DNA from: Strigamia acuminata
Lineage: Eukaryota
Assembly: GCA_949358305.1 (NCBI GenBank)
Contig: OX442314.1
Location: 5,952,001-6,016,000 of the forward strand
DNA length: 64,000 bases
Direction: 5' to 3'
Below, one piece after another: positions 8,919 through 56,660 of this stretch (positions are counted from its first letter, which is position 1; the number at the start of each line of letters is the position of its first letter). Under the pieces are notes generated by a model, which was given only the letters and a program-made list of their open reading frames with translations, was not told the DNA's origin and did not search any database. The position numbers were made by a program, and so were the translations under genes.

Positions 8919-8920
8919 AG

Positions 8921-12317: not shown

Positions 12318-12321
12318 AGAA

Positions 12322-22172: not shown

Positions 22173-22194
22173 CATTGTTACGTTTTTAGCACTA

Positions 22195-33015: not shown

Positions 33016-33050
33016 TTCTGGGGGATGGAATAAACCTTCTTCCCCCGGAT

Positions 33051-35297
33051 CTAGTTTTTTGAACTAGTCGCACTTGAATCAGCAGATTCTGGCTTGATCA
33101 AAGTCTTGACCATTTCTGCCAACGAGTTAGTCAGCGAAGTCTGTAACTTATTTTCAAAAGTATTTAATTTCGCATCAAGTTTAGCATCTAGTGTTGCATC
33201 CAACACTTCTTGAGTTATCCACCTATTATTAGATCGTTTAGAAGTCGGATCCACAGTCGGGGAATCCGGCGTACTTCGTTTTTGCAACTCTTCAGAGTTG
33301 AAATTTGCACGTGGTTTTAAATCTGGACATTCTCGACGCATGTGTCCTGGTTTCTTACAGTGGTAACAAACTAATTGACCACGTCTGGTCTGATCTACTA
33401 CTCCATTTATTAGATAAACGGCCTCACACTCCTCAGGTAACTCTTCATCACAAATATTAAGTTGTTCTTGTGAATCCAAAGTTAAAGATTTAACATTTGT
33501 CTTTGGCTGAGGACGAGTGTCAGTTTTCCGAGGTGGGAAAACAACTGGATTGAAAATATTTTCCCTTGCTCTATTAGCTGTACGACTGTACAAGCCTTTA
33601 TTTTTTGTTATAACGGCATAAATCTCTGTCAGAGGCAAATCCGCTATGCCTTGCGTATGCAAAAGCAAATCATTAGCAGGAGTTACACTCCCGATAAAAA
33701 GACAACCAGCCCCTTTTGCATCAAGACTGTCTTGTAATATCCATAACTGGTAATATTTGTGCATAAAGTCGTAAAGACTTTCTGTTTCTAGTTGTTTCAA
33801 CTTAGTTAGTTGGTTTGTCCGCTCTTGTCGAGTGGCTACAAACCGCTCTTTGAACGCCTGTTCAAATACTTCCCAAGATATGAAATCTTCTCTCCTTTCA
33901 TGAAACCAACCATGCGCTTGCTCGGTTAAATAACCGGCCACGCCTTTAACAAGCATGTCATCGAGTGACATGTTTCGCAGGAAAGCGACATTTTTTACAA
34001 TATTGAGAAAGCGTTCGCTTTCTTCTGCTTTTCCGGAGAATACAGGGATATCTGGTGGTTTCAAACAGTTAGTTTGAGGGACAGTGGCGGAACTTTTTCC
34101 TGCCTGCATCAACTTGTGCATGGTTGTGGCAATTGACGCGAGGTCATCAGCCGTCATTCCAAAGCTACTGGGGGGGCGCGAATTGTCTTTTGACGATCCG
34201 CCATTGTTTAGTTGACTCGAGTTATTTTGACTTGAGCCACCATTGTTGGGGTTGAAATTATTCGACCCTCCTTGATTCGGTCTACTGTGGTTACCAAAAT
34301 TCGAATGGTTATTCGAATTACCTTGGTTCCCATAATTCGAATGACTATTAGAATTATCTCGATTGTTAAAATTCGGACGGTTGTGCGAACTTTCTTGATT
34401 ACCAAAATTTGGACGATAGTTCGAATTACCTGGCGTACCCCGATTCAAATAGTTATTTGAATTTCCTGGAGTTCCAGTAGAAGGATTATTTAAATCGTTC
34501 GGATTATTTAGGTTATTCGAGTTCGGAGGAACTGGATAACCCCTTTGCATGTTAGGTGCTGGACTAGAATTGTTTGCAAATCTGGAATTTGGGTCAAAAC
34601 GGCGGTTTGGACCTCTTGTCGCACCTGAATTTGGGTTCAAATTTCCAGCGAGATTCGGACAACTATTTGATCCGTTTGGAAAACTTGGATTAGGGTTGGC
34701 CATATTAGGCGGACCCAAATTCGCTCTGTTGAACGTATTCTCAAAGTTCTCTGGATTTGTAAATCCTCTTTGTTGGTTGCGAGCGAAGTTATTCGCTCGT
34801 AATCGTTGTTGGAAAGCACGATTAAAATCTCCTGGTGTCAAATTCGACTGATCTTGACGAGGAGGTTGTGCATTTTTATTTCTATATCTAGAAATAGGCG
34901 TCGAAGGAGTGGGACTAAAATTATTTAATCTTTGGCTGGCTGGGGAATTAGGTTGCTCCGACGTAGCACGTTGCGCGTGTACAAAATCTAACACTTCAGT
35001 CAAAGATCTAAATTGGTTTGGGTTCAAACCGTGATCCTGACAAAATAATAGACCGCCTCGGCCTAAATGAGAACCTTCAGGAATGCATTCCTCTTCTCCA
35101 GGCGGAGTAGGTTCTCGTGGAGCCCTATTCTCTCCAGATGGTCCGGCTGTTTCATTTGAAACGCCATTATGGACCGCGTGGTTTCCCACTTCTTCAATTC
35201 CATTAGGAACAGGTACAAACCCGGATAGATTCATTCCACCGGTCAAACAAGTTCTTTCCTTACCACGGGTGTTCATGTGATGCTGGTTATTAGTCAT
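33051..35297 (-). CDS. gag: Gag of C (748 aa)
   Basis: Near-identical to Gag of B, with CCHC knuckle. Confidence 0.95.
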   Translation of the reverse strand: MTNNQHHMNTRGKERTCLTGGMNLSGFVPVPNGIEEVGNHAVHNGVSNETAGPSGENRAPREPTPPGEEECIPEGSHLGRGGLLFCQDHGLNPNQFRSLTEVLDFVHAQRATSEQPNSPASQRLNNFSPTPSTPISRYRNKNAQPPRQDQSNLTPGDFNRAFQQRLRANNFARNQQRGFTNPENFENTFNRANLGPPNMANPNPSFPNGSNSCPNLAGNLNPNSGATRGPNRRFDPNSRFANNSSPAPNMQRGYPVPPNSNNLNNPNDLNNPSTGTPGNSNNYLNRGTPGNSNYRPNFGNQESSHNRPNFNNRDNSNSHSNYGNQGNSNNHSNFGNHSRPNQGGSNNFNPNNGGSSQNNSSQLNNGGSSKDNSRPPSSFGMTADDLASIATTMHKLMQAGKSSATVPQTNCLKPPDIPVFSGKAEESERFLNIVKNVAFLRNMSLDDMLVKGVAGYLTEQAHGWFHERREDFISWEVFEQAFKERFVATRQERTNQLTKLKQLETESLYDFMHKYYQLWILQDSLDAKGAGCLFIGSVTPANDLLLHTQGIADLPLTEIYAVITKNKGLYSRTANRARENIFNPVVFPPRKTDTRPQPKTNVKSLTLDSQEQLNICDEELPEECEAVYLINGVVDQTRRGQLVCYHCKKPGHMRRECPDLKPRANFNSEELQKRSTPDSPTVDPTSKRSNNRWITQEVLDATLDAKLDAKLNTFENKLQTSLTNSLAEMVKTLIKPESADSSATSSKN

Positions 35298-36421
35298 AAC
35301 TAAACTTAAAACTAAGAAAATTTCCTAAGTCTGAGAGATAACGATGAAGTTGCAAACGTTCAGGAGGATCGCAAACGAAGCAGTGGTCACACTAGTTCGA
35401 AAGGAAGTATGGGTACTTCGATACACCTCTCTGATTGGTCAAGTATCAACGCTAGTCTCGCGAGAGTCCAATCTCGTCCGAGATTGGTGGAAATCATCAA
35501 GTTCGTGGAACCGTAATCTTGACAGATTCCAGTGTTATGACGTAGTCACCAAACAAAATGGATACTTTTCAAAATATTTTAAAATATCACCGCATTTATT
35601 AATAAATGAATGATCACCTTTGTGGAAATTTTTTAAAGTTTTTAAAACTCGTAATTTCAAAAGACGCGCCGATTCGTTTGAATCGATGGCTTTTCTGCAC
35701 AACACGGGTTGCTAGGCAACACAACAGTAAGAATTCTTCTTCGCTAAAATTCGAATGGTATTCCATTCGTATAATTCGATTTCAATGGCTTGAGATCACG
35801 ATTTTTAACCAACATTTTAATGTAGATCAAGTCTGTAAAATAAGGTAAACCCACTTTGAAATAAAATATAAATTTTAATTCCTTCGGAAAATGTCAATTT
35901 TCCTTCTATTTATTTAGGCAAATAAATTTAGGTTTAACTTGAAGTCTCAAGCAAAATTACTTATTTGGAACATTCTAAAAATAAGGCAACTGTTAAATTG
36001 ATAGAATTCTTTAAGAATTCCGTCAAAGTCGAACTTTTCAAAATTAGGCCTACCCGCGTGGTTTTGTCAGATTGTCGACGACAAAATGACGTTACCCGGG
36101 CGGAACCAACTTCAACAAGTCCGGGCAAGATTCTCATTCTCAGGGTTGGGCCTTTAGGCCTGACCACGTGGTAGAAATTATTAGTTTTGTTAAAACACAT
36201 AATTTCCACGACGGAAAATTGGAATAAAGTGAATTACACTTATTTTCTTGCGAGAAGTTCTAAAACAGAATAAAATATATTAAACGCAAATATAAATTTC
36301 GTTCGAAACTGATTTTACACATCCAAAAAATTTCATTTGAAATTTTATCACTGTAAGCACATTTCCGAATTCTCATAAACACACGAAAAACTTCAAAATT
36401 TATTTTAAATTTAGGCAGCCT

Positions 36422-36439
36422 ATCTCGGTAGAACCTCCA
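36422..36439 (-). promoter_or_regulatory. PBS of C (tRNA-Gln)
   Basis: ATCTCGGTAGAACCTCCA on the + strand, 2 nt from the LTR. Confidence 0.88.
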
Positions 36440-36441
36440 CT

Positions 36442-38184
36442 TGTGACGATTCTACTTTTGGGCTAATTTATTAGTCCTTTTAAGATAGATAATTCGGTTT
36501 ATACAAGACGTTGCTAAGTTTAGCAACAACCTAACCGAGATAAGCTACGGAAGCCCTTACAAACATGAATATGTGATCAAGTGGAAATAACTTACAGTTT
36601 TGGTGTGACATAACATATTTATTACTAAATATTAACAACAAAATATGGGTTCTTGACGCGTGTAAACGGGCGGCATCAACTGGTTGAGGATCCGGGCGAA
36701 GCCAGAGGGATACGGCTGACTTGCGGCATCGTCACAAATATCGCTACGGAGACGTATTTGGTCCGCAGCTCGAGTATCTAAAAATGCGAAGAGTCCTTCG
36801 CATAAGTAGGATTATTCAGCAGAATATTCCATATTCCAAATGAATAAAAGTAAAGTAATTAGTGGAATACAACAAATGAATTGTTGTATAAATATTAATT
36901 GGGCGGGGACCGTCACGACAATTGAGAGAATGTCGCGGGAGTTGTTGAGACTCCATCCGCCAGCATGCCTTACGACGACAAGATCTCGTGATCAGGCGCC
37001 GAGTATTTAATTGTGTGCTTTAACTCGCTATCGGTGGTACCAACCACCAGGTAAACATTTCTATGGACTTACCGGGTTTAGAAGATATTGCCAATACAGG
37101 ATTACCAATGCCCAAGTAATTTATTTAACACAGTGTTGTTCAACTCCTGTTCACGGGTTACTAACCCGGAGGGTACGATGGGGCGGGGACCGTCACGACG
37201 GTCGAGAGAACCATCGCGGGAGGATTTGACTCCTCCATCCGCCAGCATGCCTTACGATGGCGGGATCCAACGATCGAGCACCGGGTAAAATATTAATTGG
37301 CCACTGCCATTGGATTACCATTATCCAGGTAGTTGTTTTATCGCAACATCTTTAGATATTACTCACGGGCTACCAACCCGGCGTGTTACCTGTATATTAG
37401 GCTTTTACCGACTTTTAACGTGCGGAAGGACCAATCGAGAAAAGACGGGAACCTGCGAGGGCTGTTTACAACAACCACCCTGCAGCGGACTGAGGCCAGT
37501 TAGCTGAGGGACCTACTTTCATTTAGCAAGGTCGTACTGTATACGACCGTTATATTAAGCCACCGTACGAAGTCCTACTGTCCCGTAGAACAGCTGGCTA
37601 ACGTTACGGGGCCATTTCATGCGAATGCATGTCTATTACCGGAGTTAGCCTTCCCGAAATAGCCCTACAACAGCAATAACAAAATAGTAATGAATACTAA
37701 CTGTGGAGAGCTGAGGTGGCCTGATGTGTCGATAGAGAATAATGAAATCAAACGATAACAATTCAACTACAGACAATATACAAGTTCAGTTATCAAGCCA
37801 AGGGGGAAGTGAGAAACTGGAGCTTATATAGTTCTGTAGAACTACTAGATTGGCGACAGCCAATCAGCGTACGAATCGGCGGATTCGTGGGTCACTAGTC
37901 CGGACCTAATATATGACTATGTCCAGATGGGCCCAGTTGGGGTCCGGAAGGGTCCGATTGGTTCCCTTCGACTGGTAAGTAAAGTGGATATTGATTCGAT
38001 AGAATCAACATCATCAAGTAATTAATACTTAATTCATATTGAATAAAATAGTTATATTTTATTCACCGTGTCCAAGTAATAATTTATTACGCTTTTTAGT
38101 TTTAACCGAGTTTGAAATACGCGCGTTGGTTAAACAGCGCCATCTATGGTGAACATTGATAACTATCGATTTGTAATCATCACA
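36442..38184 (-). repeat. 5' LTR of C
   Basis: Direct repeat of 23803-25545. Confidence 0.97.
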
Positions 38185-39168
38185 AATTTTCTGCAAAACA
38201 TCTCGTTATTAGAGATAAGGGGGACGAATTATTAAAACGAATAATCAAAAACACGTCCCTTCGTAAGTACCGCAAAGGAATAACCAATTGTGAAAACAAT
38301 TGTCCGTTCAGGAAAAGTAGAACTTAGCTAGATATTTTTCTTTCGAAAAATCAAAGCAATTTTTTTTTATCAAAAAGAAAGATTTGATGAATAATTTTTA
38401 CCTAAAAAGTCTAAAGAATTGCGAATAAGTTTTCTTGGGAAAAACAAGTACACATTTGTACCAATAACTCTATTGTTTAAAGTGAGAATTTTTCTCGTAA
38501 CAAATTTAAAAGGGTTTTAACGAATCTTTATTAGTTAAAAATTTGTTAAAAAAGGGGGAAATGGATGGTGAAATTTATTTTTACACTCGAAAAATGGAAT
38601 TTAGCCCTAAAAGTTTAAAAGACTTGATCAAATTATTTTTCCTATTGGAAATAAGGATAAAAGATAGTAAAATGAGAGTTTGAGAAAACTTTATCATAAC
38701 TATGGTTGTAATAATATTACACACAAAACAGAATAATTAAAAAAGAATATTTTCGAAGAAAATTATTTAATTATTTGGATTGGTAAAAATCCCAAAGTTC
38801 AAGAAGATTGAAGTAAGTGTATTTTATTTTCATTTGAAAAAATACAATATTTTACGCATGTCTTCCCGAAGGAATTTTATTTTATCGGTAAAACTGAAAT
38901 TTCCAAAGGAACGGACTTAGCAGACAACTGCTAATTAAGTATAACGTCCATTATACTATTGGTTGTCGGTAAAATCCGCCAATCAGAAGTCAAGAGATCT
39001 AGGGATCCCCAGCCCCCTGCTATTAAGGGAGGACCAGATCAGACACTGATCATTCGTTTCCAGACCAGACCCGGAGACGTGTTCCAGAGCCATATCGTCT
39101 TTTTAAAAGACGTATATTCGTCTTCTTTATAAATTAAAGAATTAAAATCGTCAGATTTTGAATTTATT

Positions 39169-40460
39169 ATGGCTCAAAAACTATTGAATATGATCGATCC
39201 AAAAGGAAATAATAAGCAGACAAACTTAAATTTAAGTTCTGTACCACTTGGCGATCAAACAGAAAAGATTCCCGATCATTTTACTCTGTATTGTAATCGT
39301 CATGGACTAGATAAAACCAAGTAAAAAATATAATCGAAGCTTCGAACTATGTAACCGCTAGGAACTGGCGAGATCGTACCCAATCTCAATCTTCACATCA
39401 AGATCCAGTACGGAATCCACAAACATACAGCCGAAACTTAGTGAATCAAGATTCTCATACTATGTTTCAAACATCCAGTAGGGGATCTAACTTAGAAAAG
39501 TTTAAACCACCTAATTCGGTAGATAAGGGGAAAAAGAATTATAAACCTAATAATTCTTGTCCAGAGAGTTCCTTAACTAACCAGTCGGTTGTTCAGAACA
39601 AATTAAAACTCGTTTACAATCGGGATCAGCTAATTTCAGTTCGATATGCTAATCCAGCTGAAGCACAACGATATGTGGCTAGCCTTAATCTGTCGATTAA
39701 CCTACCGCTATCAAAAGAATTGGGAACCGTAAACAAAAGTTTTGGGCCACCAATATCAACGCAAAGGAAAGATATTCAGGTTACAAATAAACATTTGCTG
39801 TCGCCGAATTCTTGCGATGGATTTACGACTTCGTTTTCCAATCCCGCGAACAAGAAGAGTAGTTTACATACTCCAAACAAACGTTTGCAGTCACTTAACT
39901 TGCAACAACGTGCTCGATCGCCGATCACAAACTCATGTTTGCGGACAAATAATCTGTCTACCAAGAAGAGTCCCCAGCCAAGACAATTCTACCTAACGCC
40001 CATTTCAAATCAGAAAAAGGTCAAGCAAACTTTTCCCTTAAAAAAGTATTACCAACACGATAATGAGAATGATTTTAAACCTAAAAGAGAAAGTTCTTTG
40101 ACTAACCCACGGGAGATTCGGTATCAATTCGAACAGTATTGTAAACAATACCAGTTAAATTCAGCTGAATTTACTAGTATAGACGAAGCGCAACAATTTG
40201 TATTTCGAAGTCAATACCGTACTCAACGAATAAACCCCGACCCAGTCGTCAATTTGACGGAGATACAACAAATTGCGCCTGGAAAGCAACCCTGCAATAT
40301 CCAGAATAATTCATCTCAACGAGAGGAATTAAGAACTTCTAACAAGCGTTTTCGGTCACCAAGTCCAGCTGGTGATGAAGAAACTTCAAGTACAAACCAA
40401 CTTGTTCATAAGCTGACTATAAACCCAGGTTTCCAGTCATCGGTTCCACGACTTAGAGTC
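39169..40460 (+). pseudogene. 5' part of the single ORF of element A (Gag-N-terminus-related); 1-nt frameshift at ~39322, cut by D at 40460
   Basis: ATG at 39169 reads ...YCNRHGLDKTK, then shifts frame to KNIIEASNYV and joins ORF 39441. A second motif copy, YCKQYQLNSAEFTSIDEAQQFV, resembles D Gag YCRHYQLEVTQFSSLCEAQQYT. Confidence 0.7.
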
Positions 40461-43400
40461 TGTGACGATTACCTTCTGGAGATAGCAATTGCTAAACTAA
40501 AGTGTGAACTATCTGTGTGAAAGTGTAAAATATGCAAACCTGATGTTTTCTCAAAACATATAACATTTATTCCGGTTTGAACCTTATATAAATACTATGC
40601 CTACAAGTGGCTAAAATGACGATAAGTTAAACTATACAGTTATTTGGCAAAAGCCCTGAAATAATATCATTTGAAGGCTTCAGTCATGCAATAAGAATTT
40701 GTAACGGTCTTATTGCTGTGACGTAAAAGATGTCATCTATGAATGGCTTTGGCTTCTAAATGGTCCGGGGTTGGTTCTAAAAAGCGTGTAAATGGTTAGG
40801 CTGGGTGGGTTATATCCGAGAGGTGCGGTTGACTTTTCTGTATCGTCACACACATCGCATCGCAGATAATTGTTGAAATCAATAATTACCGCAAGATGTA
40901 ACAATGTGAGAATAAATAGTCATATTAATTCTATGGAATTAATCATGATATTTTAGAGTCACAAACTTAACTTAAACTGTGAAAATAAGTAGAATATATT
41001 AAAATAGCGCCGAGCTATTTTTTGCCCCGAGTGCAATCAACATCTAAGTTAGACTTAAATGTTCCGTCAAACCAATAACGAATTGAATCGAAATATCTCG
41101 CAGGAAAGGTTATCCATCGCCGGGAAATTACTCCACTCGGTTCTGGCTGGCGGGAGAGTAACCGGGAAATTACTCCGCGTCGATTACTCTGATAATGCGT
41201 CTGTGAAATATAAATACTCCACTCTAGATTCTACATTACCAATGCATCTGTGAATTTTACTCCACTCTAGATTCTACATTCTACAACGGAATGTTGGCAT
41301 GAAGCTGGAGGGAGTGCGTCTGTGGGTTGTACCCCACTCTAGATACTACACTTAAATGTGTCTGTGAATTACTCACTCTAGTTACGACATTTCTACAACG
41401 GAATGTTGGCATGAAGAGGCGGGAATGTGTGTCTGTGAGTCTTCTACCCACTCTAGATACTTACACTAAATACAAAGTATTTCTACAACGGATTGTCGGA
41501 ACGCAGAGAAGTATAATATGTGCTCAAGTAATATCAGTATCAAACAAAAACAGAACAAGAGCGAGCTATATCCGTTTTGCAGGGGGATATATACTCGGTG
41601 AGGAGAATAGCTGTTCAGTGATCCAATGGGATCACTGGGCAGTCAAATCCATCCAATCCTAGATCACAGGAAGTGGATACTCAGGACATAGTCTTCTACT
41701 AGGTCCACTACAGGAACTGGATACGCAGGACACACTTTGGATTAAGTCCCTTTGACTATAATCCGAAAGGAGTCCAACTCACAGTGGGTGATGAAGGGTG
41801 ACTTCACCAGGTGTAAAGTTTGCACATAATTCAATAGAATTATGTGACAAATAAATCAACTAGTTTTTAAACATCCAAAAGTATTTAAAAGTGTCTAAAG
41901 TTGCAGTGGAATAAAATATAAATAGTAATTTATATTTTATTCACTCAAAAATTGTCGAAATTTGAATTTACCGCTAAAACGCATCAGCGCCATCTAAGGT
42001 GCGCGCCATAAGTATAGAATAATCAGTTTTTTTGAAATATTTTTTTTGCGCTTCATCTGGAATCAAACCAATTTTTTAATAAATGTATTTTGGCATTAGA
42101 ATTCATTTAAAATTAACAGGTTTTTAAGTTTTGTATAAAAATAAATTTGACAGTGATTTTCCTTAAAAATGGGGGTGACATAAGTATAGAATATTTTAGG
42201 TTTGATGCAAAAAAATGGAGAAAATTAATAACACATAACATGCCTTTGTTTGATTAGTCAATCAGTGATTATGTCATCAATTTTCTGCCATTTTTGAATT
42301 GTATTGCTTGCTATTTTCTTATTTTGATGCAATCCCTTGTGCAAAACTTGTAAGCATTGTAGAAATCACTGAAATATGGCAAGTAAAGTCACTGGGGCTC
42401 TCCAAACAGCAAATCCATAGAAGATCAGGAAGAAATTAATCAATTATATCAAAAGTCCTAACCCAAAGATGAAAATCAAATATGGAAGCAAGACGGGGAG
42501 GATCAAAAGTGATGATGCAGCAAGTGGACAGGAATATTTTGTGCCTGGCACTGACTTTGCTGTTGTCTGCAAATGAAATTTGCACACATGTAGATGTAAT
42601 TGTGTCTTTAGCAAACAATTCAAAGCAGAATTAGCAATTGTGATCACCTTTGTTATCAAAAATAGCTGTACAACTGTGGTTAACTGAAGCCCATAAATTG
42701 AAGTGCTCTGATTAGACTAATACCAAGCTGCCCTGGATCAAATCATGAAACTGAGTGCTTTTTACAGACAAAATACAGTTCAACTTAGATGGTCTGGATG
42801 GTTAGTGTAATAAGTGGCAAGATTTAAGGAGAGGAGAGAGGTTTTCTCAGTGGGCAGAATCATGTGATGGTTTGGGTGACATTCGGGCGAAAATTACAGG
42901 CAAACATCATAATAATGAAAGGATGGAAAGATTCACAGAAGTGTAAGGAAGTGTTGAACATGCATTTATTGCCATTTGGATGGAAAATTGTGCCAATAAA
43001 TGGGTGTTTCAGCAGGACAATGCTCACTGCATGGTCACTTTTGGTCTTTCCTGTCTGCTTTCACATTTGGATTTCATGTTTTTGTTAGAATTTTTGATGC
43101 AATTGACTAATTTCTTTCAATTTCTTCCTAATCTTCTATCAATTTGTTGTTTGGCAAGCCCCAGTGCCTTTAATCGCTTTATTTCAGCGATTTCCACAGT
43201 GGTTGCAAGTTTTGTACAAGGGATTGCTTCAAAATAAGAAAATAGCAAGTAATACAATTCAAAAATGGCAGAAAATTGATGACATATTCACTGATTAACT
43301 AATTAGACAAAGGCATGTTATGTGATATTAATTTTATTCATTTTTTTGCATCAAACCTAAAATATTCTATACTTATGTCACCCCCATTTTATGTAAAATC

Positions 43401-43615
43401 ACTGCCAAATTTATTTTTCTACAAAACTTATAAACCTGTTAATTTTAAATGAATTCTAATGCCAAAATACATTTATTAAAAAATTGGTTTGATTCCAGAT
43501 GAAGCACGAAAAGAAATATTTCAAAAAAACTGATTATTCTATACTTATGGCGCGCACCTTATTGGTGAAATAATCGTCCTATACTAACAAAGTGTATGAC
43601 AGTGTAACCGTCACA
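40461..43615 (-). repeat. 3' LTR of D, interrupted by a Tc3-like transposon
   Basis: Matches 49801-51390 after removing 41997-43561. Confidence 0.95.
41997..43559 (+). mobile_element. Non-autonomous Tc3-like (Tc1/mariner) DNA transposon with ~520-bp imperfect inverted arms
   Basis: TA duplication at 41995-41996 and 43560-43561. Termini AGGTGCGCGCCATAAGTATAGAAT. Decayed transposase motifs VLFTDKIQFNLDGLDG (~42755-42802), VMVW and WVFQQDNA. Confidence 0.88.
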
Positions 43616-43802
43616 AGTCCCCCTTAAATATATGTTAATTCCATTGAATTTACATACTATTTACTCATCTTGAGGATCAAGACCACACTGTCATCTAGGG
43701 AACTCGAGCTGAAATTCTTGGTAAGGGAAATCTCTATTTTATAACTTAATCATATAAAATAAAGTTCAACCTTCAATCAAATGCTTCAAAATATTGTGTT
43801 TT

Positions 43803-46800
43803 TTAACCCAACTTGACTTGTTTTAAACAATTTATGAGTTGTACAAAATCGGTCACGTATTTTGTGTTCGGCTTGGGTCTACGTTTAGACTGTCGAACGG
43901 GAGATGGAAATCTTTTCCTCTTTTTAGACGGATTTTGAGGAGTTTCGTCCTCTTTAGAAGAAATCTGAGAAGTTTCCTCCTCTTTCTCTTCAACTAAATC
44001 CTCTGTTTCCATGGATACAGGCTCATTTATTAGTTCTGGAGAATTAATAACTTGATCCGCCATCCAATCTGGAGTCGGGTGTGACTCGTTGGTGCCGACT
44101 TTCTGATCTAATGTCCATTCCTCAATCGGGTAACTTGGGATATAAGGCATTAAATCCTGTATGTTGATCGCTTTTGCTTTCGTGTTATCAGAAAGCTTAC
44201 GTAGTGTGTAGGAACCTCCGCCGAGAACAGCCGTAATTTCCCAAGGTCCATCACGTTTCTCCGCGAATCCTGCCGAAATCCCTTTATCTTTATTCGATAA
44301 AATATGTGTGGCTTTCCACACGAGATCTCCTTTGGCAAATTGACAAATATAATATTTGTCCTTATGTAGTCGATCATGCTTCTCGTAATTCGATTGAATT
44401 TTTCGATGCATTTCGCTGTGGGCACGTCTAATTACGTCTAAAATACTATAGACATAAGCTTCGGGATTTTCTTTGTCGAATTTGATGGCGTGTTTAGTAA
44501 TACGCGGGTCAAATGGCAAAGGAACGATTCTTCCCGTATTAAGAATCATCGGAGAACAATTTGTTGCCTCGGACTTAGCGGTGCGCATCGCAAAGGCAAA
44601 AGAATTTAAATATTTTGGCCAGTGGGAGTGAATGTCCGAGTATAAAGCTAACATCATTTTTAAAGTCCTGTTTGCTCGCTCTGTAATATTAGCGGCAGCG
44701 TGATATGGGCTAATGTGAGCAATATCTACGTGATTTTTTCGACAAAAATCATTAAATATTGTCGACACGAATTGTTTGCCGTTGTCGGAGATTATCTTTT
44801 TTGGATATCCCCAACGGTGGAAAACTTCGCTCATCTTATTAACGATACATTCACTTGATGCCGTCGCTAGTGGGAAGACTTCAATCCATTTTGTACAATT
44901 ATCAATGATTACTAAAATCCATTTTAATTGTGAACGACCGGCTGGTTTTGGTCCCATCAGGTCAATGCTTATTGTCTCCCACGGGTTGGTCATGTTGTGG
45001 GGTGTATAGCTTGCCCGATGTTTTTGGTGTTGACTAGGTTTGTATTGCTGGCAATGAGTGCAACTGCGAACGTAGTTTCGAGTGTCTTTGCTCATTCTGG
45101 GCCAGAAATACATCTTCTTCGCTCTATCCAGGGTTTTGCTCATGCCGGCATGTCCCGTAAGTGGGTGGCCATGGCATGCGAATAATGCACGTCTCACAAG
45201 AGAGCGTGGGATTACTGCCTTAAACCCGTTGCCGGAGTCGTTTAACTCTTCCTCATCGGTCGGAGCAAAATAAATTAGCATAACACCTTTATTTTCTTCC
45301 GGTTCGTCGAGAGTGTAGCCACGAATCGCATTTAACCAATGTTTATCCGTGATACGATTTTTTAATTTTTCGTTTCCTTTTAGGTAAACAAGGATTTTAC
45401 TACATGCTGGATCTTTAAGCTGCGCTTCGATAATTTCATCTCGCGTCGGCGGAACTACTTTTAGGATATCTGTTAGCGCAGTGTGTACATTTTCGTGATT
45501 ACAATTGTGGACATCTATATGTCTGCAATTTTCTCTCGTACATCCTTCTTCCTCCCCCTTTTCTCCAGAATCATGAAATCTAACTGGATTATATGATTCT
45601 GAGAAAAAATCTAAACTAAGGCCAACATTTGTAAGAAAATGTTTGCGCTCAGTTTCCGTCACTTGTAAAGATGCACACCTGTTTCCATTCCAAGTTGGAT
45701 AGAAATGTGTGATTTCCTCTGGTTCGATATAATCATAATCCGGAGTGTCTAGTGCAGACAGTGGAGTGCGTGATAATGCGTCCGCTACTTGGTTCATTGC
45801 GCCACGTCTAAAAATAATTTTAAACGCGCCACATTGTATTTTTACGGCCCAACGACCAAACCTTCCGGATGGTTCCGGCGTACTCATCAACCAGCTAAGG
45901 GCCTTAGCATCGGACTCGAGAGTGAAGGTCGTGTATTCTATATACGGGCGAAATCTCTCGATTGCCCATACAACGGCCAAACACTCCAATTCCGGCGTAG
46001 AATACCTTACTTCGGCCCCGTGTAACACTCGACTGGCGTACGCGACTGCTTTCGGGACCATTATTAATTTCTGTTTCTTTTCACAGAATAATTCGACATC
46101 TTGGCAGAGTACTGCACCCAAGCCTGAATGAGAAGCATCTGTCAAAATGACAAAAGGTTTATTCATATCTGGCATGTGGAGAAGGGCTTGGTCCTTGTCA
46201 CACAAAATATCTTTGATAGTTTCGAATGCAGTTGTTTGTGGATCATCCCACACAAACTTTGCTTGATCATGCATAATATTGGTCAATGGACGAGCAATAT
46301 TGGCGATGTTAGGAATAAATTTTCGGAAAAAATTCGCCAGTCCTACAAATCTCTGAATGTCTTTAGAACAAGTCGGTTTGGGAAAATTCCTTACAGCCGA
46401 GACTTTGTCAGGGTCTGGAAGAAGAGATCCCTCGGAAATTAAATGGCCTAAAAATCGTAATGATGTTCGACCAAATTTTGACTTATCTTTATTGATAGTT
46501 AGATTTGCGGCATCTAACTTCTCAAGTACGTCTTTAATATGCGATAAATGATTTTCCCATGTGTCAGAAAAAATAATTATATCGTCTAAGTAGACCAGAG
46601 CATGTTTATATAAAGAGTCACCCAATACAGTAGTCATGAGGTGTTGAAAAGAGCTGGGTGCATTACAAAGACCAAATGGCAATCTTTTGAATTGAAATTT
46701 GCCTTTTGGGGTGTAAAAAGCAGTTTTACTCTTGTCCTCTTCCTCCATTTCCATCTGATAATAACCTTTAGTCAAATCAATGGACGTAAAGTACTTGGCC

Positions 46801-47400
46801 TGATTAGTATGATGAATTAATAGGTCAATACTTGGCATTTGAATTGCATCAACTTCTGTGATTGCATTCAACCAGCGGTAGTCGATACATAATCGATACT
46901 TCCCGCCGGGTTTAGCCACTATGACGGGGTGACTTATATAGGGGCCAGTGGCAGGTTCGATTAACCCATCGGCCTCCAATTCCTCGACCAATTCCGTCAT
47001 AATGGCCTTCTTGGCCGGATTGTACATTCTATATGGCTGGTGTTTCCAAGTAGCACCAGGTTTAAACTTGATGCTGTGCTTGGCAACCTTCGTGCAGCCC
47101 AATTGATCTCGAAATACGTTTTTTGCTTCCAAAAGAACGTTTACGAGTAACTGTTTTTCTTCCGCCGAGCTGTTGCAGCCTTCGACGAGTTTTTCTGCCC
47201 AGTCAGGTGAAGTGGGAGTTCCTTCACCTTGGAGACCTAAAGTCCTAATGTTTGCTAAGCAACAGTTAAGTTCAGTGGTCTCGTATGGTGCTGTCCATCC
47301 GGGCATGTCATCACAGGTGAACACAGCCCGTCGGGGATTAGGGTTTATCCCCGTTCTACGCATAAAATTGTGACCCAAAATTAACCCACATACATTCTTG
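43803..47400 (-). CDS. pol: Pol of D (RT-RH-IN intact; protease N-terminal part including DTG deleted)
   Basis: YLDD, TDAS, HGHPLTGH...CTHC, SDNG. Begins abruptly at KNVCGLILGHNF, compare KRVCGLILGHNF in B. Confidence 0.9.
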
Positions 47401-48894
47401 TGTACATAACGCCGTGAAACTTTCTTGAGTTAAATTGTCGAATAATTGTGCACGTCCAGTTTTATCACCTGGCGGCACTTCACCTTGTTCTTGCGTATAA
47501 CGCAGAAGAAAACTATAAAGTGATTCGTCGGCTCGTTGTTTTACATTAAGAAGTCGCCTTTCTCTTGTAAGTGGAACGAGGTCGAAACAATCGAGAAAAG
47601 AGGCTTCGAAAGTTCGCCAACTGTTAAAAGTATGGCGTTGCTTATGGAACCAACGTTGTGCATGGCCTAATAGTCGTCCAGGTACAGCAGTGTGTACCAT
47701 GTCGTCTAAAGGAATGCCTTTCCCGAGTGCGACAGCTTTGACGATTTCAAGGAATCGCGCAACCTCTGTCTGTTTCCCGTCAAAAATAGGAATCTCGATT
47801 CCTTTTCCAAAATTCTGACTGGGATTACTCGGGCTTCGGATTTGACCTACTAAACCCTGAATAATTTGTTTTACATTTTCGTCTGACAAATTAGAAGCAG
47901 CGTTCGAGTTGGGTGTAGACCGACTTTCTTGGTCTCGGGGTGGCGGATTTGGTTCTCCTCGAAAATTTTGCTGTCTATCAGGTGGCAGTGGAGAACGCGA
48001 ATTATTTCGTTGGTGGAAATTATTGTTATAATTTCCCCCTCCACCAGCGTGAGATTCGTCACTACTCGAGTTAGGATCGGAGTCACGAGGATCACCAGGA
48101 GCTCCGGGAAATCGTTGATTTCTCGGCGGAGCTCGTCCACCTTGAGAGCGGGAATTTCTATAATTCCTAAAATCTCCATCAGATTGGGCGTGAGATTGAA
48201 AATTTTGATAATTTTCATTTCTCCCCCTTGGTTGGACCGACAGATTAGTTCGAGGCTGTGGAACTCTGAAAGAATCATTCAAATTCCCAGTGGGAGCGGG
48301 TAAATTATTATTTACTGCCGTCGCACTTGGCAAATTTCGGGAAATTGGCGCAGAAATATTTCCTTGTCCGGAATTTCCCATTCTTTCGGCCGAATTCGAT
48401 CGCCAAGAACTAGCTGGTAACTGAATCGAAGGTTGAACAGATAGTGAAGAATTTAACTGCCCATTGTCGTCACGAGCAACATTCATTCGCCATCCAGGTA
48501 ATTGCTGGTAGCGATATGTGGCCGGTGAACGAGGGCCAGTTCGATCTACAGAAACACTTCGTTCGTTGGTTACAACTACATCGGGAGTAATTACACGATT
48601 TCTCTCGTGATGATTATTCGCCGTGTATTGTTGAGCTTCACACAAAGAGGAAAACTGCGTCACTTCCAATTGGTAATGGCGACAATAAACTTCTAAATCA
48701 TGCGGGACTGATAGTGGATCCGTTCGAGAACTACCCGGGTTGGAAACGTCTCTAGGAACATTTTCTTCCCCCTGGCTTTCTAAATCAGACTCCACAATTC
48801 CTCTTGGTGTTTCACACATACCACCACGTCGTCGTGCTCCACGATTTCCTCGTGTTCCACGAACTCTTACAGGTCTACGGGCCATAATACTCAA
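47356..48894 (-). pseudogene. gag: Gag of D, C-terminally truncated (no zinc knuckle)
   Basis: IPIFDG...AQRWFH...WRTFEASF capsid-like region. Homology to B Gag stops at CTQ (~47400), where pol sequence is joined out of frame. Confidence 0.85.
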
Positions 48895-49780
48895 AGAAAT
48901 ACACGTACAAAAAGAAAAAATAAAATTTAACTGAACTAGCGTAAATGTAACACGCTTAATATTAAACTAAGAAATAATTTGAAAAAATACAACCTTAGCT
49001 GCTGAAACTGAAGTGGCTTCGGGAAAGGACTGTCCTGTTGCGTGGTCAAGAATGGTCCAAACGGGCACTGGTCACAAAGGCACAACTGGATGGTCGCACT
49101 GTCGAGAAGCAAGTGTGGCTGAATATTGGTTGTCAAACTAGCTTCCGGAAAATCTCCTTTGTCAAGACAGTCTGCTGTGATTGGCGATGTTGAAAAATTC
49201 CTGATAATTTCTAACCCGAAATTCTCAACAATCCCACATCTGGATGACCTACTCCGAGCTGCATCGTGAGTGGCTCTCTTTGTCACATTCTTTGCCTTGT
49301 CAAGGATTAAGAATAATAATCCAGAACGTTGAACAGAACAATAGAAACTTGGTCAAGTTTTTTTAACCAGTAAAATAAAATATTTTAACTTTTTATTTTT
49401 CAGTCAGCAAACTAAAAAATATTTTTATTAATATATTTTTTCAGCAGAATTTCTAGTCAAATTCGTTTTTTGATTGAAATTCAAGGTTTCGAAATTTTCC
49501 AGAATATAGCCGAATATTCTGGGAAACTCAATAAAACCAAAATAGATTTTTTTGTAGGAAATTCGGAATTATAATGAGTTTTCAAAATAATCCAAAAATT
49601 GGAATTCAGATATTTCCAAAAGATAATGAGAATTTTTTGAAAACAAATGAATATTTCACAGTAAATTTATAGAGAAAAAATCGGAAATTTTCTAATTATA
49701 ATATCTACATAAAATAATCAAAAAATTCATTTTTCAATTTTACACTTGATCACAGAGTTCACTTCAATAAAATGCAACCT

Positions 49781-49798
49781 ATCTCGGTGGGACCTCCA
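49781..49798 (-). promoter_or_regulatory. PBS of D (tRNA-Gln), identical to that of A
   Basis: ATCTCGGTGGGACCTCCA on the + strand, followed by CG and then the LTR. Confidence 0.9.
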
Positions 49799-49800
49799 CG

Positions 49801-51390
49801 TGTGACGATTACCTTCTGGAGATAGCAATTGCTAAACTAAAGTGTGAACTATCTGTGTGAAAGTGTAAAATATGCAAACCTGATGTTTTCTCAAAACATA
49901 TAACATTTATTCCGGTTTGAACCTTATATAAATACTATGCCTACAAGTGGCTAAAATGACGATAAGTTAAACTATACAGTTATTTGGCAAAAGCCCTGAA
50001 ATAATATCATTTGAAGGCTTCAGTCATGCAATAAGAATTTGTAACGGTCTTATTGCTGTGACGTAAAAGATGTCATCTATGAATGGCTTTGGCTTCTAAA
50101 TGGTCCGGGGTTGGTTCTAAAAGGCGTGTAAATGGTTAGGCTGGGTGGGTTATATCCGAGAGGTGCGGTTGACTTTTCTGTATCGTCACACACATCGCAT
50201 CGCAGATAATTGTTGAAATCATTAATTACCGCAAGATGTAACAATGTGAGAATAAATAGTCATATTAATTCTATGGAATTAATCATGATATTTTAGAGTC
50301 ACAAACTTAACTTAAACTGTGAAAATAAGTAGAATATATTAAAATAGCGCCGAGCTATTTTTTGCCCCGAGTGCAATCAACATCTAAGTTAGACTTAAAT
50401 GTTCCGTCAAACCAATAACGAATTGAATCGAAATATCTCGCAGGAAAGGTTATCCATCGCCGGGAAATTACTCCACTCGGTTCTGGCTGGCGGGAGAGTA
50501 ACCGGGAAATTACTCCGCGTCGATTACTCTGATAATGCGTCTGTGAAATATAAATACTCCACTCTAGATTCTACATTACCAATGCGTCTGTGAATTTTAC
50601 TCCACTCTAGATTCTACATTCTACAACGGAATGTTGGCATGAAGCTGGAGGGAGTGCGTCTGTGGGTTGTACCCCACTCTAGATACTACACTTAAATGTG
50701 TCTGTGAATTACTCACTCTAGTTACGACATTTCTACAACGGAATGTTGGCATGAAGAGGCGGGAATGTGTGTCTGTGAGTCTTCTACCCACTCTAGATAC
50801 TTACACTAAATACAAAGTATTTCTACAACGGATTGTCGGAACGCAGAGAAGTATAATATGTGCTCAAGTAATATCAGTATCAAACAAAAACAGAACAAGA
50901 GCGAGCTATATCCGTTTTGCAGGGGGATATATACTCGGTGAGGAGAATAGCTGTTCAGTGATCCAATGGGATCACTGGGCAGTCAAATCCATCCAATCCT
51001 AGATCACAGGAAGTGGATACTCAGGACATAGTCTTCTACTAGGTCCACTACAGGAACTGGATACGCAGGACACACTTTGGATTAAGTCCCTTTGACTATA
51101 ATCCGAAAGGAGTCCAACTCACAGTGGGTGATGAAGGGTGACTTCACCAGGTGTAAAGTTTGCACATAATTCAATAGAATTATGTGACAAATAAATCAAC
51201 TAGTTTTTAAACATCCAAAAGTATTTAAAAGTGTCTAAAGTTGCAGTGGAATAAAATATAAATAGTAATTTATATTTTATTCACTCAAAAATTGTCGAAA
51301 TTTGAATTTACCGCTAAAACGCATCAGCGCCATCTATTGGTGAAATAATCGTCCTATACTAACAAAGTGTATGACAGTGTAACCGTCACA
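49801..51390 (-). repeat. 5' LTR of D
   Basis: TGTGACGAT...CCGTCACA. Direct repeat of 40461-43615. Confidence 0.96.
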
Positions 51391-51394
51391 AGTC

Positions 51395-51667
51395 AAATAT
51401 AGGGCCCCTCGTAAGTTGCGAGGTTTCACAATTCCGAATATGGGTCCTTTCCATGTATGGTTATCCAATGAGGGTCCCATTCATGTATGGTTTTCCAGAG
51501 ATGATCTAAAGCGAAAGTTTGGGTCGTCACGGTCATTTACACTGCCAAGTGAGTACACTACATGTAACTGTCCAAAGCATCGAAAGAGATCATTAAGGCA
51601 GACTGAGAGATCTCGGAAATTAGCTCTTAAGCGCGCTCAATATTTTACAAGGAATCATGTTGACTAA
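51395..51667 (+). pseudogene. 3' part of the ORF of element A
   Basis: Removing D and one TSD joins ...PRLRV (40460) in frame to KYRAPRKLRGFTIPNMGPFHVW...NHVD*. Confidence 0.7.
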
Positions 51668-52254
51668 ACATGATAAGACACACAAAGATTTCCCGATTAT
51701 AGTGTAAAAAGAAAAATCCTTTTCTATGAATCATGATCTCTTTTCTAGAGAAAAGGGGGACAAAATATAAAGTTAAAATTAACAAATCTCGAAAAGTAAT
51801 GCTACATTATTAAAAGACAACTAGTTTAATTAAATTAGTCAATTGTACAAAGAATACCAAGTGACTCCGGTCATGACAATTAAAGGGGACAATTATGATT
51901 TCTAATTGTCAAAACTTATCATCTAGAACTATTATTTATAGCGATACATCTGACTAGGCATATGAAATAAATATTTTTGTGATAACACAAATGATGATGT
52001 TATGTATGACGAAGGTTTCTTCAAAAGAAAACTTAGAAATAAATTCTCAACTTGAATTTGTGCTATTGGAAAAGATTATTTCGGCAGAAATCCAGAACTT
52101 AGATAATTTAAAGTTAGTTTATGTAAACTCAAATTCGAAATTGGAAGTCACAGTATCTCCAAGATACATCAGGTCCGAAAATAGCATTTATGCTAATTAG
52201 GAGAATAACGAAAATTCTATAAAATTTTATATAATTGTGTTATTAAGGGGGATG

Positions 52255-55200
52255 TGTGACGGTTTACAATGGCTATAAATGCCTATTTTCTTAGAAAGAA
52301 GCGCTGTTGCGCCATTATCATGATATCTCGAAGATATTCTGTGTAAAACTGGTATAATTCCTAAATAAAGATATTTGGGATGTTTCAAATACAAAGATGT
52401 TCGTTTATTATTAATGAACACTCATTTCTACATGATATAAATATATCACGGCCGAATTACGAAGAGTCGTCTGCTAAAACCCGCATTTGTCAATGCTCCA
52501 TATTGCCACTAGATGGCGCGATCGCAATTAGCGGTAAATTCGAATACGAACTTGAAAACCTCATGATTAAATATAAACGTATATTTAATCAAGTGAATAA
52601 ATTGTGTTAAATATTAATATAAATATATATTAAATATCTGACATTGTTAAATACAATGTAACTTCCATTTCTGCGGGACAGAATGTTTAGCGATCAATCA
52701 GTCAACCGATCAATCTGATTGGTGGAACCCATTTCCGGTCCTGGGTATCCAGTTCCGGTTGTAACAAGGATTAGCATAATTTGCATAAATGCTCCTCCGT
52801 ATCCACTTCCGGTGATACGGGATTGGAGGAATTCATGGAACCAATGTTCCAATTGGATAGTTGGATTAATCCTTAATCCAGTCAGGTTATATAAACCCAA
52901 ACAACCAGCCATTCCGCAGCTCTGTTTGATTATTTCTGTTTGGTATTGTTACTTATGAAATATGATTCGTTGTTCACGTAAAAAACCTTTTGGTTCTTTG
53001 TTGATTTATTCGCAAAGAACCGTTGCATGATTCTACAGAATCATGCCACCGCCGGCAATTGAAGTCGAAGTGCTGGGATTATTATGTTGCATAAATGTTA
53101 CAGTCTACGGTTGCGACGCCGAAGGAGAACCCGCCGTTGTGCAATTCAGTATCCTCCGGACAGGACCAAGTTGTCTTTTTCGGTATGAACGTATTCCGTT
53201 ACCACGAGTAGCATCGGTATTGTTGAGAATTGGTTCCTTCACCTGATGGTGCCAAAGCAGTCTGTTTTACAGTAACCACGAGTAGCACCAAGTGTTTGGC
53301 AAGCTGATTCTCATGGTATTCGATGCCAAAGCAGTCGGTCTATTATTAGTACCGCGAGAGATTAAACTGCTGTGCGGAGCCGCGAGCTATCGACCCCTGT
53401 GTACGTGGTACCGTCAACCACTCGATGGACGACCGTGCTGCGACGCCGGGGACGCTTGATACCGTTCTGCATGGCAAGGCGTATATTCTAATCGATGGCA
53501 ATTGTGTGTTACGACGGGAAGATTAATCTTTATCTTTATTTATAACAGTGAAATCTAACTTGGGAACAAGTTAGTCAAAATCAAGTCAAGTAACTCGAAT
53601 TACTTATATATTGTATTCAATATAATTATTAAGTTTGTGACGATGACCTTTCGATGACGCTATCCGCTCAAAATGTGTATTTTGGCATAACAAGCAAGTC
53701 TATCAATTCTAGTAGTTGAGAGATAAGTTAACAAACCTAAAGTGTGAACTGGGTAAAATAATGAAACCGGTGGTTATCAAGACATAACATGTTTATTGAT
53801 ATATAAATATAATCACCGAGAAGTGATTATATTAATCAATTTGCATAAAATACAATTATACATTGACTATGCCGACAATTGGCCGTATAAATTGGTCGAT
53901 TAACTATACATACATTCGCCTAAACGGCGCTATGATAATATCAAGTCGGCTTCATCGGGTCAGTAAGATGTCATCTGAATCGGATGATTATTTGGTCCTA
54001 GTTGTACATCGGGGTCTGGTTCGAATCTGTAATGAAAAGGTTAGTATCCGAGGACGTCCGGTTGACGGTATCTGCATCGCCACAAACTTGGGGCGGTTAT
54101 TGGTTTAAATGGCTTGTGAGAGCCACTTACCAATTAACCTCTTATAAATGTTTTAAGACATTCATAATTGGTGTGATACGTCAAACTGGTTCTTCATACG
54201 AGAGTAAACTGTTGCGAGTTTACAATCATAACTTCTGGTTCCGTGTAATGGATGTATTTATTAGAGTATTACTTTTCAGTAAATACTCGTAATAATTCTG
54301 CTTACATAAAGTTGGCAATTTAGCTACACATCTACTGGCAAGTAAATGCTAATGTAGCTAGTCTTCAGTTTTGTACAGTTCTGGAAGAAGTATCCATGTT
54401 TATGCACAATGTTAAGTGTGACATAAACCAGTTGGGGATTTAATCTAACTAAACTTTTCCGAGTTTAGTTATTTCAACCCTAATGTTACATTTTCGACAC
54501 GCTGTTCGGCAGCCGTGGTTTACTGTAACTGGCAGGCCTTGTGGAACACTTGTTGAATTATATCCGGCCCGACGGGATTCTTACTACTCATCGCCGCGAC
54601 CTGATCTCCTCACGGCCACACAGCCGTCATCGGGCACCCGGACATGGAGGCATCATATCACCCATCTCCACGTCAAGTGTACGCCGTATGTAGGTTGTCA
54701 TAGGCCCGCAGTATAAGGGGCATTGACTGCGCAATCAACAGACAAGCAAGTGTCTGCGCAATCAACATGACAACCGGAGTAGTAGAAAGGGCTCAAGAAA
54801 ACATATAGTCAAAATATCTGGTCAAGAGCGAGTTACTTCCTGTTGCGAGGAAGTATATACTCGGGGAAAACAATAGCTTGGCCATTGCTCCAATGAGAGC
54901 AATGGTCCTGCAAATCCCCCCAATCACTGGTCCAGGTGATGGGATACTCAGGACACATTTTCAGTTCAGGTGGTCAGCTAGACAGACCATAGCTCTCTGC
55001 TAGGTCGGGACAGGAACTGGATAGCGAGGAACACTTTTGGATTAAGTCTTTCAACTTGATCCGCGGGGGTCCACGCTTGGAGCAAGTGCGAGGGGGAGAT
55101 TTAATCTCCTAAACCTAGTTTTGAGGTAACTTTGCAGAGTTATCACAAAACAACATAATATCTATATTTATTGCCATAAATATAAGATAAAGTCGATTCT

Positions 55201-55884
55201 CTGCCTTAAAATCACATAAAAGTTGCATTTTATGTGGTTTTACATCAAGTGACAAATTCTATTCGAATTTGCCGCTTTTGGTCGTCAGCGCCATCTATTG
55301 GCGTAATTTGTCGCTATATCGATGAGCGACTGCATGATCGTCATAAGTTGGCGACAACTTAGTTACAAGAACATCCAAATAGGAAAACACAACGATACGA
55401 ATTAAATATAATTCGTAGAGCGGAATATTGATAACTAAATGAATACATTTAGTTACACCAATATCCTCCCAAAGTTGTGGCGGTGCACATGAGTCAACCG
55501 CATCTCTCAGATCATTCGATTCATCGACGTGCGATGATATTACACAGCGAACCAAGGAACCAGCGAAGCCGTATCGGACTCCAGGACACAGCCATCTAGC
55601 TTAGATGACATCTATAACCAGGTCGAGCGATGGGAAAACCGCTCCCATCCCATGGACACGTAATGATATTATTATAAAGCCATTTGGCTAACTTGTTGTA
55701 TAGTTTAAATGATTATTTAACGGGTCAAATGTCGGCGTTAGTCCTATGTATAAATTAGCTTTGATATTATTGTTTGCCAACAATAAACTGTCTTGTATTT
55801 ATCTCGTATTATATTCACTGTTATTCTATTGCGATCTATTCCCGGTACCATTGTTAAATGGGAGTTGTGGTCGTCACCGTCACA
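52255..55884 (+). repeat. 3' LTR of A, interrupted by solo LTR E
   Basis: Matches 4132-6047 with ~6 substitutions seen. Preceded by the PPT. Confidence 0.95.
53636..55345 (-). mobile_element. Solo LTR E (1710 bp) of a family related to D
   Basis: TGTGACGAT...ATCGTCATA termini. TSD AGTT at 53632-53635 and 55346-55349. Shares GGATACTCAGGACA, CAGGAACTGGATA, TTTGGATTAAGTC and CAGCGCCATCTATTGG with the D LTR in the same orientation. Confidence 0.88.
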
Positions 55885-56054
55885 ACCAGAATAGCAACGC
55901 TGAAAAGAGCGTCGCTCGTGGATTCCCCATCATAATAGCGACGCTGGAAATAGCGATGCAACATAAGAGTGACGACACGAAACAGTGACATTGCTCTTGT
56001 ATTACATCGCTCATTCGTGCGTCGCTCTTAAATCCACACTTTCCCCAAGCCATT

Positions 56055-56290: not shown

Positions 56291-56519
56291 ATGAGTGACT
56301 ACACATGTGTTTATGGATAAATTTTAATATTTGCCGCATATTTTACAATGGGAATGGCTAATTGTTTGTGAGTAATGGGTATGTTAACTTAGTTTTTACC
56401 TCTAATTTTTTATGTAACTTCACAAAAGAATTTTTTTCTCAGAAACTGATGGATAGATGGTCAATAATTGGCCAAAACCAGATGTCATTTTTTTAGCGAT
56501 AGATTGCCTCGTCAAAGCG

Positions 56520-56660
56520 ATGTTTGGACGCATTTGTGCGATTGAATGTGGCCGAACATCGCCCGCATTTGTGCAATCGAATGCGGCCGAACATCGCCCG
56601 CATTTGTGCAATCGAATGCGGCCGAATATCGCCCGCATTTGTGCAATCGAATGCCGGAAT
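56520..56660. repeat. 35-bp palindromic tandem repeat, ~4 copies, related to the array at 22195-22394
   Basis: GCCCGCATTTGTGCAATCGAATGCGGCCGAACATC, period 35 (56561, 56596, 56631). Confidence 0.9.

Follow-up and report, generated by a model that had tools for sequence, protein, structure and literature searches.

The DNA analysed here is a window of 64,000 nucleotides from Strigamia acuminata (GenBank assembly GCA_949358305.1, contig OX442314.1, positions 5,952,001 to 6,016,000 of the forward strand; all coordinates below are those of the window), which contains nested long terminal repeat (LTR) retrotransposons. Element A, the outermost of these, represents a young, non-autonomous family that lacks a capsid, keeps its open reading frame (ORF) in frame and is tied to the Ty3/gypsy element D, a copy of which interrupts this very ORF; this view is now better supported than in the preliminary description of the window. 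The A ORF encodes two, possibly three, copies of a short motif that occurs once near the N-terminus of the Gag protein of D and of two further Ty3/gypsy elements, B and C. As an LTR retrotransposon, A has neither a capsid nor pol genes, and it is likely to be copied by Gag and Pol of the D family.

Structure of element A and its ties to element D

Element A is a young LTR element with TG...CA LTRs, a 4-bp target duplication, a primer site and a polypurine tract:

4132-55884, + strand: element A, with the target duplication ACCA (4128-4131 and 55885-55888); contains B, C, D and a solo LTR
4132-6047, + strand: 5' LTR (TG...CA), with 6 mismatches in 1916 bases relative to the 3' LTR
6048-6075, + strand: primer-binding region, 28 bases identical to those of D, with 4 mismatches in 26 relative to B
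6048-6691, + strand: leader, with three diverged copies (73-76% identity) of a unit starting at the primer site
52245-52254, + strand: polypurine tract, from the boundary check
52255-55884, + strand: 3' LTR, interrupted by the solo LTR at 53636-55345

The primer-binding region is one that we take to be complementary to the 3' end of the glutamine transfer RNA (tRNA-Gln), and the threefold, decaying primer-site unit in the leader (6048-6691) may multiply packaging or priming signals. Once B, C and D are subtracted, the interior of A amounts to about 6.8 kb.

Several of these cis signals are those of D. The first 10 bases of the A and D LTRs are identical and both LTRs end in GTCACA, whereas A and B agree in 5 end bases; in addition, the A and D LTRs have four blocks of 25-67 bases in common (E <= 0.002), while no block common to the A and B LTRs was found at E <= 1. 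The two elements also appear close in age, as judged from an LTR divergence of 0.3% for A and 0.2% for D, in one copy each. Taken together, the 28-base primer region, the 10 LTR end bases, the common LTR blocks and the apparently similar age make D a fitting candidate mobiliser of A, and B appears to fit less well. Three of the features by which partners have been matched in wheat, i.e., primer-binding site, LTR termini and putative motifs of the LTR promoter region, are found in common between A and D; simultaneous activity and agreement in subfamily structure are the other two (PMC9744471). Very probably, A is a non-autonomous family that uses D-type proteins.

A single ORF without capsid or pol

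The coding part of A is found in three pieces, the last two of which are separated by D:

39169-39321, + strand: ORF piece 1, with its ATG at 39169 and 51 codons, followed by a frame break inside motif copy 1
39315-40460, + strand: ORF piece 2, with 382 stop-free codons, mostly predicted to be disordered and rich in N, S, Q, K and R
40461-51390, - strand: element D (Ty3/gypsy), interrupting the ORF, with the duplication AGTC at 40457-40460 and 51391-51394
51395-51667, + strand: ORF piece 3, with 90 codons and a stop; GP(F/I)HVW twice (51443 and 51473), CNCPKH (51563) and a basic tail

The preliminary description had proposed a hidden ORF made of 39169-40460 and 51395-51667 with a frameshift at about 39322, and this reconstruction holds: with an X placed at both breaks (the frame break and the D insertion), the reading frame runs over 521 positions and meets no stop. 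The 382-codon frame is far beyond chance: averaged over 2000 composition-matched shuffles, the longest stop-free frame has 82 codons, and in none of them does it exceed 201. In public runs (X2 and X3; see below), the dominant form is short of 90 nt that are present in the window copy, so that about 490 codons would be the more typical length. The predicted protein carries a net charge of +45 (isoelectric point 10.2) and is 82% disordered by a simple charge-hydropathy index; its N+Q content is moderate (at most 28% per 60 residues, versus 43% in B Gag). The GP(F/I)HVW repeat, CNCPKH motif and basic tail of the C-terminus, also described previously, could all be located, and the single-sequence model of this piece is of low confidence (mean predicted local distance difference test score, pLDDT, 49.5). 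Two candidate origins for these C-terminal features are not supported, namely, for the tail, an integrase tail (12 of 22 residues are identical to B pol, with P = 0.02-0.03 in one of 20 comparisons) and, for GP(F/I)HVW, the GPY/F motif. It is probable that the A ORF is kept as a protein.

The earlier statement that no capsid or CCHC region is visible was borne out by three scans of the window copy of A. The A interior, taken as four pieces, shows no CCHC, protease or reverse transcriptase (RT) motif in any frame; tblastn of B, C or D capsid or pol against A gave nothing better than E 0.09; and Pfam at cut-off detected no family in the three ORF pieces, whether Retrotrans_gag, Ty3_capsid, CCHC or other, while the same scan detects capsid families in B and D Gag. 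This absence concerns the A copy of the window, the contigs of other copies having been compared over 38190-52300.

A repeated motif from the N-terminus of Gag

The 22-residue motif was described as present twice in A and once in the Gag proteins of D and of B and C. The A ORF indeed has two significant copies, and D Gag and B/C Gag have one each close to the N-terminus; a third, weaker copy in A had been missed:

39289-39353, + strand: motif copy 1 of A, split by the frame break
39612-39677, + strand: probable degenerate middle copy of A (P = 0.0035 against the D core)
40137-40250, + strand: best copy of A, composed of the motif (40137-40202) and a downstream PDxVV stretch in common with D Gag; predicted helix-loop-helix
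48622-48687, - strand: single motif of D Gag, near the N-terminus
10307-10372, + strand: single motif of B Gag, near the N-terminus
34980-35045, - strand: single motif of C Gag, near the N-terminus

With a profile built solely from D, B and C Gag, 40137-40202 is the top non-self match among the 2732 six-frame segments of the window (independent E-value, iE, 6e-5), and blastp aligns A 40137-40250 with residues 79-132 of the D Gag open frame (41% identity over 54 residues, E 2e-6). Copy 1, read with an X at the break, outscores all 2000 shuffles against both the D core and the B core. The middle copy at about 39612-39677 is missed by profile hidden Markov models and gives P = 0.0035 against D and 0.068 against A's own third copy; judged from these scores, it is likely to be genuine. 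For the best A copy, the score is 106 against D (P < 0.004) and 44 against B (P ~0.015), which places it much nearer to D; the A and D ORF regions give no DNA-level alignment by blastn at word size 7.

AlphaFold, run on an alignment of five sequences, predicts two helices (residues 11-24 and 35-51) with a ten-residue loop between them (pLDDT 86-90). A fold search with this model gave no match at E <= 0.001 in BFVD and PDB, and in a comparison with 48161 chains the best Z was 4.3, with none at Z >= 5; helix-loop-helix proteins account for 17 of the 50 best matches. These weak matches, seen in a comparison that had bHLH and SAP-HEH types of fold in view, indicate a common shape only, and the lack of a clear fold match does not show a new fold.

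Searches beyond the window were likewise negative. None of 1001 candidates was accepted in a protein search with the second ORF piece, none of 1906 when the motif alignment was compared with longer proteins and none of 7990 in a protein search with D Gag. A profile search of 1.84 billion proteins returned two matches, both of them tandem-repeat proteins that sum weak matches, and 29 sequence matches in PDB are transcription activator-like effector (TALE) repeat arrays with a single-repeat iE of 64 or worse in the three alignments checked; both sets were rejected. No usable match for the motif came from an atlas search, no locus related to the motif region from metagenomes and none related to the D RT from viral contigs, and the motif was not found in either of two loci with 34-35% RT identity. 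In the sequence searches made, the A protein thus appears without a detected homologue outside the window.

A family that keeps its frame

Three public runs, from two studies, contain the region, one of them possibly being the source of the window itself. Contigs were aligned to 38190-52300 and to 39100-40500; no contig spans the whole element, and contig depth was not taken as copy number. In three of the four runs compared (X1, X2 and X3), dominant contigs cover the A ORF, with minor forms down to 80% identity, and dominant and diverged forms together cover 38190-40460 and 51391-52300; A is not covered in the fourth, small run (X6). A therefore exists as a family.

The dominant forms are open and continuous across the D site, and not randomly decayed, a case that the preliminary description had named as one that would speak against its reading. 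Three length differences reach a 20% share, one located 5' of the ATG and the other two corresponding to a single event at the break of the window copy. This break is absent from the dominant X2 and X3 contigs, and a loose end in X1 agrees. Two X2 contigs and one X3 contig cross the D-free junction at 40460 and continue into post-D sequence, which means that a D-free ORF exists as DNA; in X2, 28 of the 30 letters past 40460 match 51395 onward, in frame and without a stop. Among five joints, the four that start within the ORF all keep the frame (90; 106 replaced by 79; 39; 66), the content of the joints of 39 and 66 being uncertain as the letters between are not known, and the fifth, which starts 5' of the ATG, is not frame-keeping. 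Two more contig pieces carry a 3-letter gap, and a relative 80% alike shows 66 substitutions, but not a single gap, across 337 aligned bases. Finally, of the 12 best-supported small indels out of 285, seven, of one or two letters, fall in the non-coding flanks of A and none in the ORF. The frame is thus kept in the dominant A forms.

A possible adaptor protein and alternative explanations

What the A protein does can be approached from its parts. The reading to which we lean, tentatively and with a little less than even confidence, is that of an adaptor that docks on helper Gag. The A ORF would go back to a D-like gag of which it kept the N-terminal part, with the loss of everything from the capsid onward, via deletion or the copying of a spliced RNA, the acquisition of a new C-terminus and the duplication of the motif. 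The motif, in this reading the only structured part of the long helper Gag N-terminus and modelled as an open helix-loop-helix that would need a partner, would be an association module, several copies of which could provide avidity for helper Gag molecules with one copy each; RNA would be bound by the basic, disordered body, and the adaptor would bring A RNA into assembling D particles. As the motif is only 22-54 residues long, its binding to helper Gag is directly testable. A stronger form of this proposal, which we regard as rather doubtful, is that an animal Ty3/gypsy element has in A a true satellite, whose multivalent mimic of the Gag module would clamp assembling particles and load A RNA instead of that of the helper. 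This would mean a capsid-hijack protein as in phage satellites, of a kind not known from LTR retrotransposons, and would also reveal an unnamed Gag N-terminal domain.

A number of observations weigh against an adaptor of this kind. The window copy of A has both a frame break and an insertion in its ORF, and other A copies, compared over 38190-52300, could carry gag-pol in their 5' leader. The motif is a short one, and shapes made of two helices are widespread (best Z 4.3). D, the proposed helper, is itself defective in the window: the Gag CCHC and protease motif are absent (47356-47429, - strand), an internal deletion joining gag to pol sequence. Intact D is hinted at by one X3 contig alone, which has 593 extra letters beyond 47397, where gag meets pol, and suggests that complete D copies exist elsewhere. 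The contrast in indels between flanks and ORF is weak once length is considered (P = 0.06), and there are 26 homopolymer runs in the flanks versus 5 in the 5' part of the ORF. Of the two checks that had been proposed on other A copies, ORF integrity gave a positive answer in the dominant contigs, but the ratio of non-synonymous to synonymous changes did not reveal significant purifying selection: in 40 of 131 rows of the contig comparison, the 31 dominant substitutions comprise 11 synonymous and 20 non-synonymous changes and no stop (expected synonymous share 0.22-0.28; ratio ~0.65; P = 0.08-0.30). Another 11 substitutions of lower depth (4 synonymous, 7 not) were counted separately, as several of them coincide with the 90-nt joint and could stem from the alignment itself. 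No strong constraint on the amino acids is seen in this comparison, which fits a mostly disordered protein, and fits a passenger too.

A could be no more than a passenger that moves by its cis signals alone, its ORF being a near-functionless leftover of a D-like gag N-terminus that has been deleted and duplicated. We consider this unlikely. A synonymous excess that is not significant, the disorder predicted for 82% of the protein and the degenerate middle copy of the motif are all consistent with it, and the homogeneous dominant form may stem from a recent burst, which would keep any ORF open for a while. Against it stand the 80%-alike relative that is gap-free over 337 bases and the frame being kept at four of four joints within the ORF. 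Moreover, the A and D ORFs no longer align as DNA, which implies that the ORF has remained open through a long divergence, with the motif still 41% identical.

The resemblance of A to CERV, a product of the Caenorhabditis elegans element Cer1, raises the question of whether the A protein instead acts in the nucleus on unspliced element RNA, that of A and perhaps of D, by promoting its export or stability in a CERV- or Rev-like manner. The Gag-derived helices would then self-associate rather than dock on Gag, and A would be partly mutualistic. CERV is capsid-less, combines Gag N-terminal peptides with a new C-terminus and is needed for RNA export (PMC10309623). The A protein is similar in size and layout, with Gag N-terminal helices, CNCPKH and basic runs, and D lacks a third ORF while B and C have a cysteine-rich one. 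Nevertheless, the likeness is one of layout, and none of the searches returned CERV; CERV has two globular domains, whereas A is mostly disordered with no confident model for its C-terminal piece; and A clusters just two cysteines and one histidine. A regulator of this type is improbable.

Another reading takes the A family to be autonomous, with the A ORF as its 3' accessory ORF and with gag and pol deleted in the window copy. The ORF ends 587 bases before the 3' LTR, much as the 520-codon third ORF of B lies about 740 bases before its own LTR, and a leader of ~4.7 kb, with inserts, precedes it. This leader contains no remnant of capsid or pol, though, and, given the nearly identical LTRs of A, a clean loss of ~6 kb could only have happened very recently; the A ORF is also dissimilar to the third ORF of B, and the loose ends in 38190-39168 are short (best 24 of 1347 rows), all of which makes this origin more improbable still. 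Hardly probable at all is a dominant-negative restriction by which the A protein would poison D or B particle assembly, like Ty1 p22, and limit helper copy number, even if truncated Gag proteins are able to inhibit assembly in trans (PMC4599808) and the motif is common to two helper families.

Other features of the nest

Self-comparison and boundary checks of the 64-kb window place the nested LTR elements between channel sequences of the left and right flanks. Besides A and D, these elements are:

7337-21377, + strand: element B (gag, pol, third ORF), with the duplication AGTT; nested in the A leader
23803-38184, - strand: element C, of B's family (94%), with the duplication AATT; nested in the A leader
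53636-55345, - strand: solo LTR within the A 3' LTR, with the duplication AGTT; related to D and A LTRs

LTR pairs differ by 6 mismatches in 1916 bases for A, 2 in 1581 for B, 3 in 1743 for C and 3 in 1536 for D. B, C and D belong to Ty3/gypsy, as seen from the order of their Pfam domains (protease, RT, RNase H, integrase) and from their best RT relative of solved structure, Ty3 Gag-Pol (E 7.5e-106). All four young insertions (B, C, D and the solo LTR) sit within A, a pattern that hints at a target preference of these elements or at a hot spot where insertions are tolerated; every duplication is of 4 bp. The solo LTR has TA rather than TG at one end.

Behind pol, B and C carry a third ORF in sense orientation that is some 500 codons long (17491-19053, + strand, and 26283-27842, - strand, respectively), with an internal stop in the copy of C. 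It is cysteine-rich (CPFCVGCGWCC, CPNC, HCPKC), gives no Pfam family at cut-off and occupies the place of a CERV-like or other accessory gene; D has none. The 3' LTR of D contains an element (41995-43561) that has a TA duplication and inverted ends of 530 bp (88%); run X6 has this element too. Relative to this inverted-repeat element, the depths of A and D add up to several times the X3 value in both X1 and X2, a difference that may reflect RNA, a strain difference or an artefact. Palindromic inserts rich in tandem repeats are found in the A leader (21900-22630 and 22770-23415), with a 35-bp repeat occurring again at 56484-56689.

As for the flanks, exons of an amiloride-sensitive channel (Pfam ASC) are present on the left and copies with 67-76% identity on the right; these tandem DEG/ENaC-type genes (206-3907 and 58467-63813) are 67-79% alike. 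No tRNA match and no Rfam match was found in the whole window.

Comparison with known systems

Large retrotransposon derivatives (LARDs) are elements with a non-coding interior. Like A, they have long LTRs, an interior of several kb and no pol; unlike them, A has a long ORF (382 stop-free codons versus at most 201 in shuffles) and thus falls outside this class.

Helper-parasite pairs of LTR elements are already known (PMC9744471, PMC11302176). Of the satellite-like, helper-parasite reading put forward in the preliminary description, the non-autonomous family with cis signals matching those of D stands; such a system is not new in itself. What was not found in the literature searched (subscription journals and Repbase-type records being outside its scope) is the combination seen in A, i.e., an element that lacks a capsid and repeats an N-terminal motif of Gag. 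Among the closest known pairs is RLG_Sabrina and RLG_Wilma of wheat. Sabrina variants are Gypsy-type elements of 6-8 kb without RT or integrase, several of which encode a short protein in place of gag-pro, and they have the same primer site and LTR 5' ends as their otherwise dissimilar helper RLG_Wilma (PMC9744471). Sabrina and A are thus both non-autonomous with helper-like primer site and LTR ends. The replacement proteins of Sabrina, however, are described in plants as non-Gag or virus-derived, whereas that of A repeats an N-terminal motif of the helper Gag.

One gag-derived ORF, no pol and mobilisation in trans are also features of RLG_Quinta, whose partner is RLG_Cereba and which carries an added domain of unknown function (PMC11302176), and of TR-GAG elements (PMC4350172). 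These retain a GAG domain and are assumed to contribute protein to the particles, while A is without capsid or nucleocapsid and does not show the recognisable GAG (capsid) domain that defines gag-only elements of the TR-GAG or Quinta type.

Two autonomous elements provide further parallels at the protein level. CERV of Cer1 is a protein of 517 residues with a helical-hairpin domain, a loop rich in cysteines and a putative nuclear localisation signal (PMC10309623), and it resembles the A protein in its length of about 520 residues, its Gag N-terminal helices, its new cysteine/basic C-terminus and its lack of a capsid. Yet CERV is a spliced product of an autonomous element, with one helical and two globular domains and a demonstrated role in RNA export (PMC10309623), whereas A, a separate element, has no gene other than this ORF, in which the motif is repeated; the two proteins were compared by layout only. 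In Ty1, a disordered N-terminal domain of Gag is required for particle assembly (PMC10002725), an indication that the N-terminal part of a Gag can matter for assembly. Ty1 thus offers both a Gag fragment acting in trans, p22 (PMC4599808), and a disordered, N/Q-rich N-terminus that drives assembly (PMC10002725). In contrast to A, in which no capsid is found, p22 is the C-terminal, capsid-containing half of Gag and comes from an autonomous copia-type element (PMC4599808).

In the current view, non-autonomous LTR elements either cheat by cis signals alone or repay their helper with capsid protein. Next to these, a third strategy is suggested by a family that has no capsid, keeps its frame and multiplies a small motif of Gag. 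The motif of A singles out the part that matters in a long, unannotated Gag N-terminus, and the A/D pair could be used to study by what means an LTR particle selects between RNAs that compete for it.

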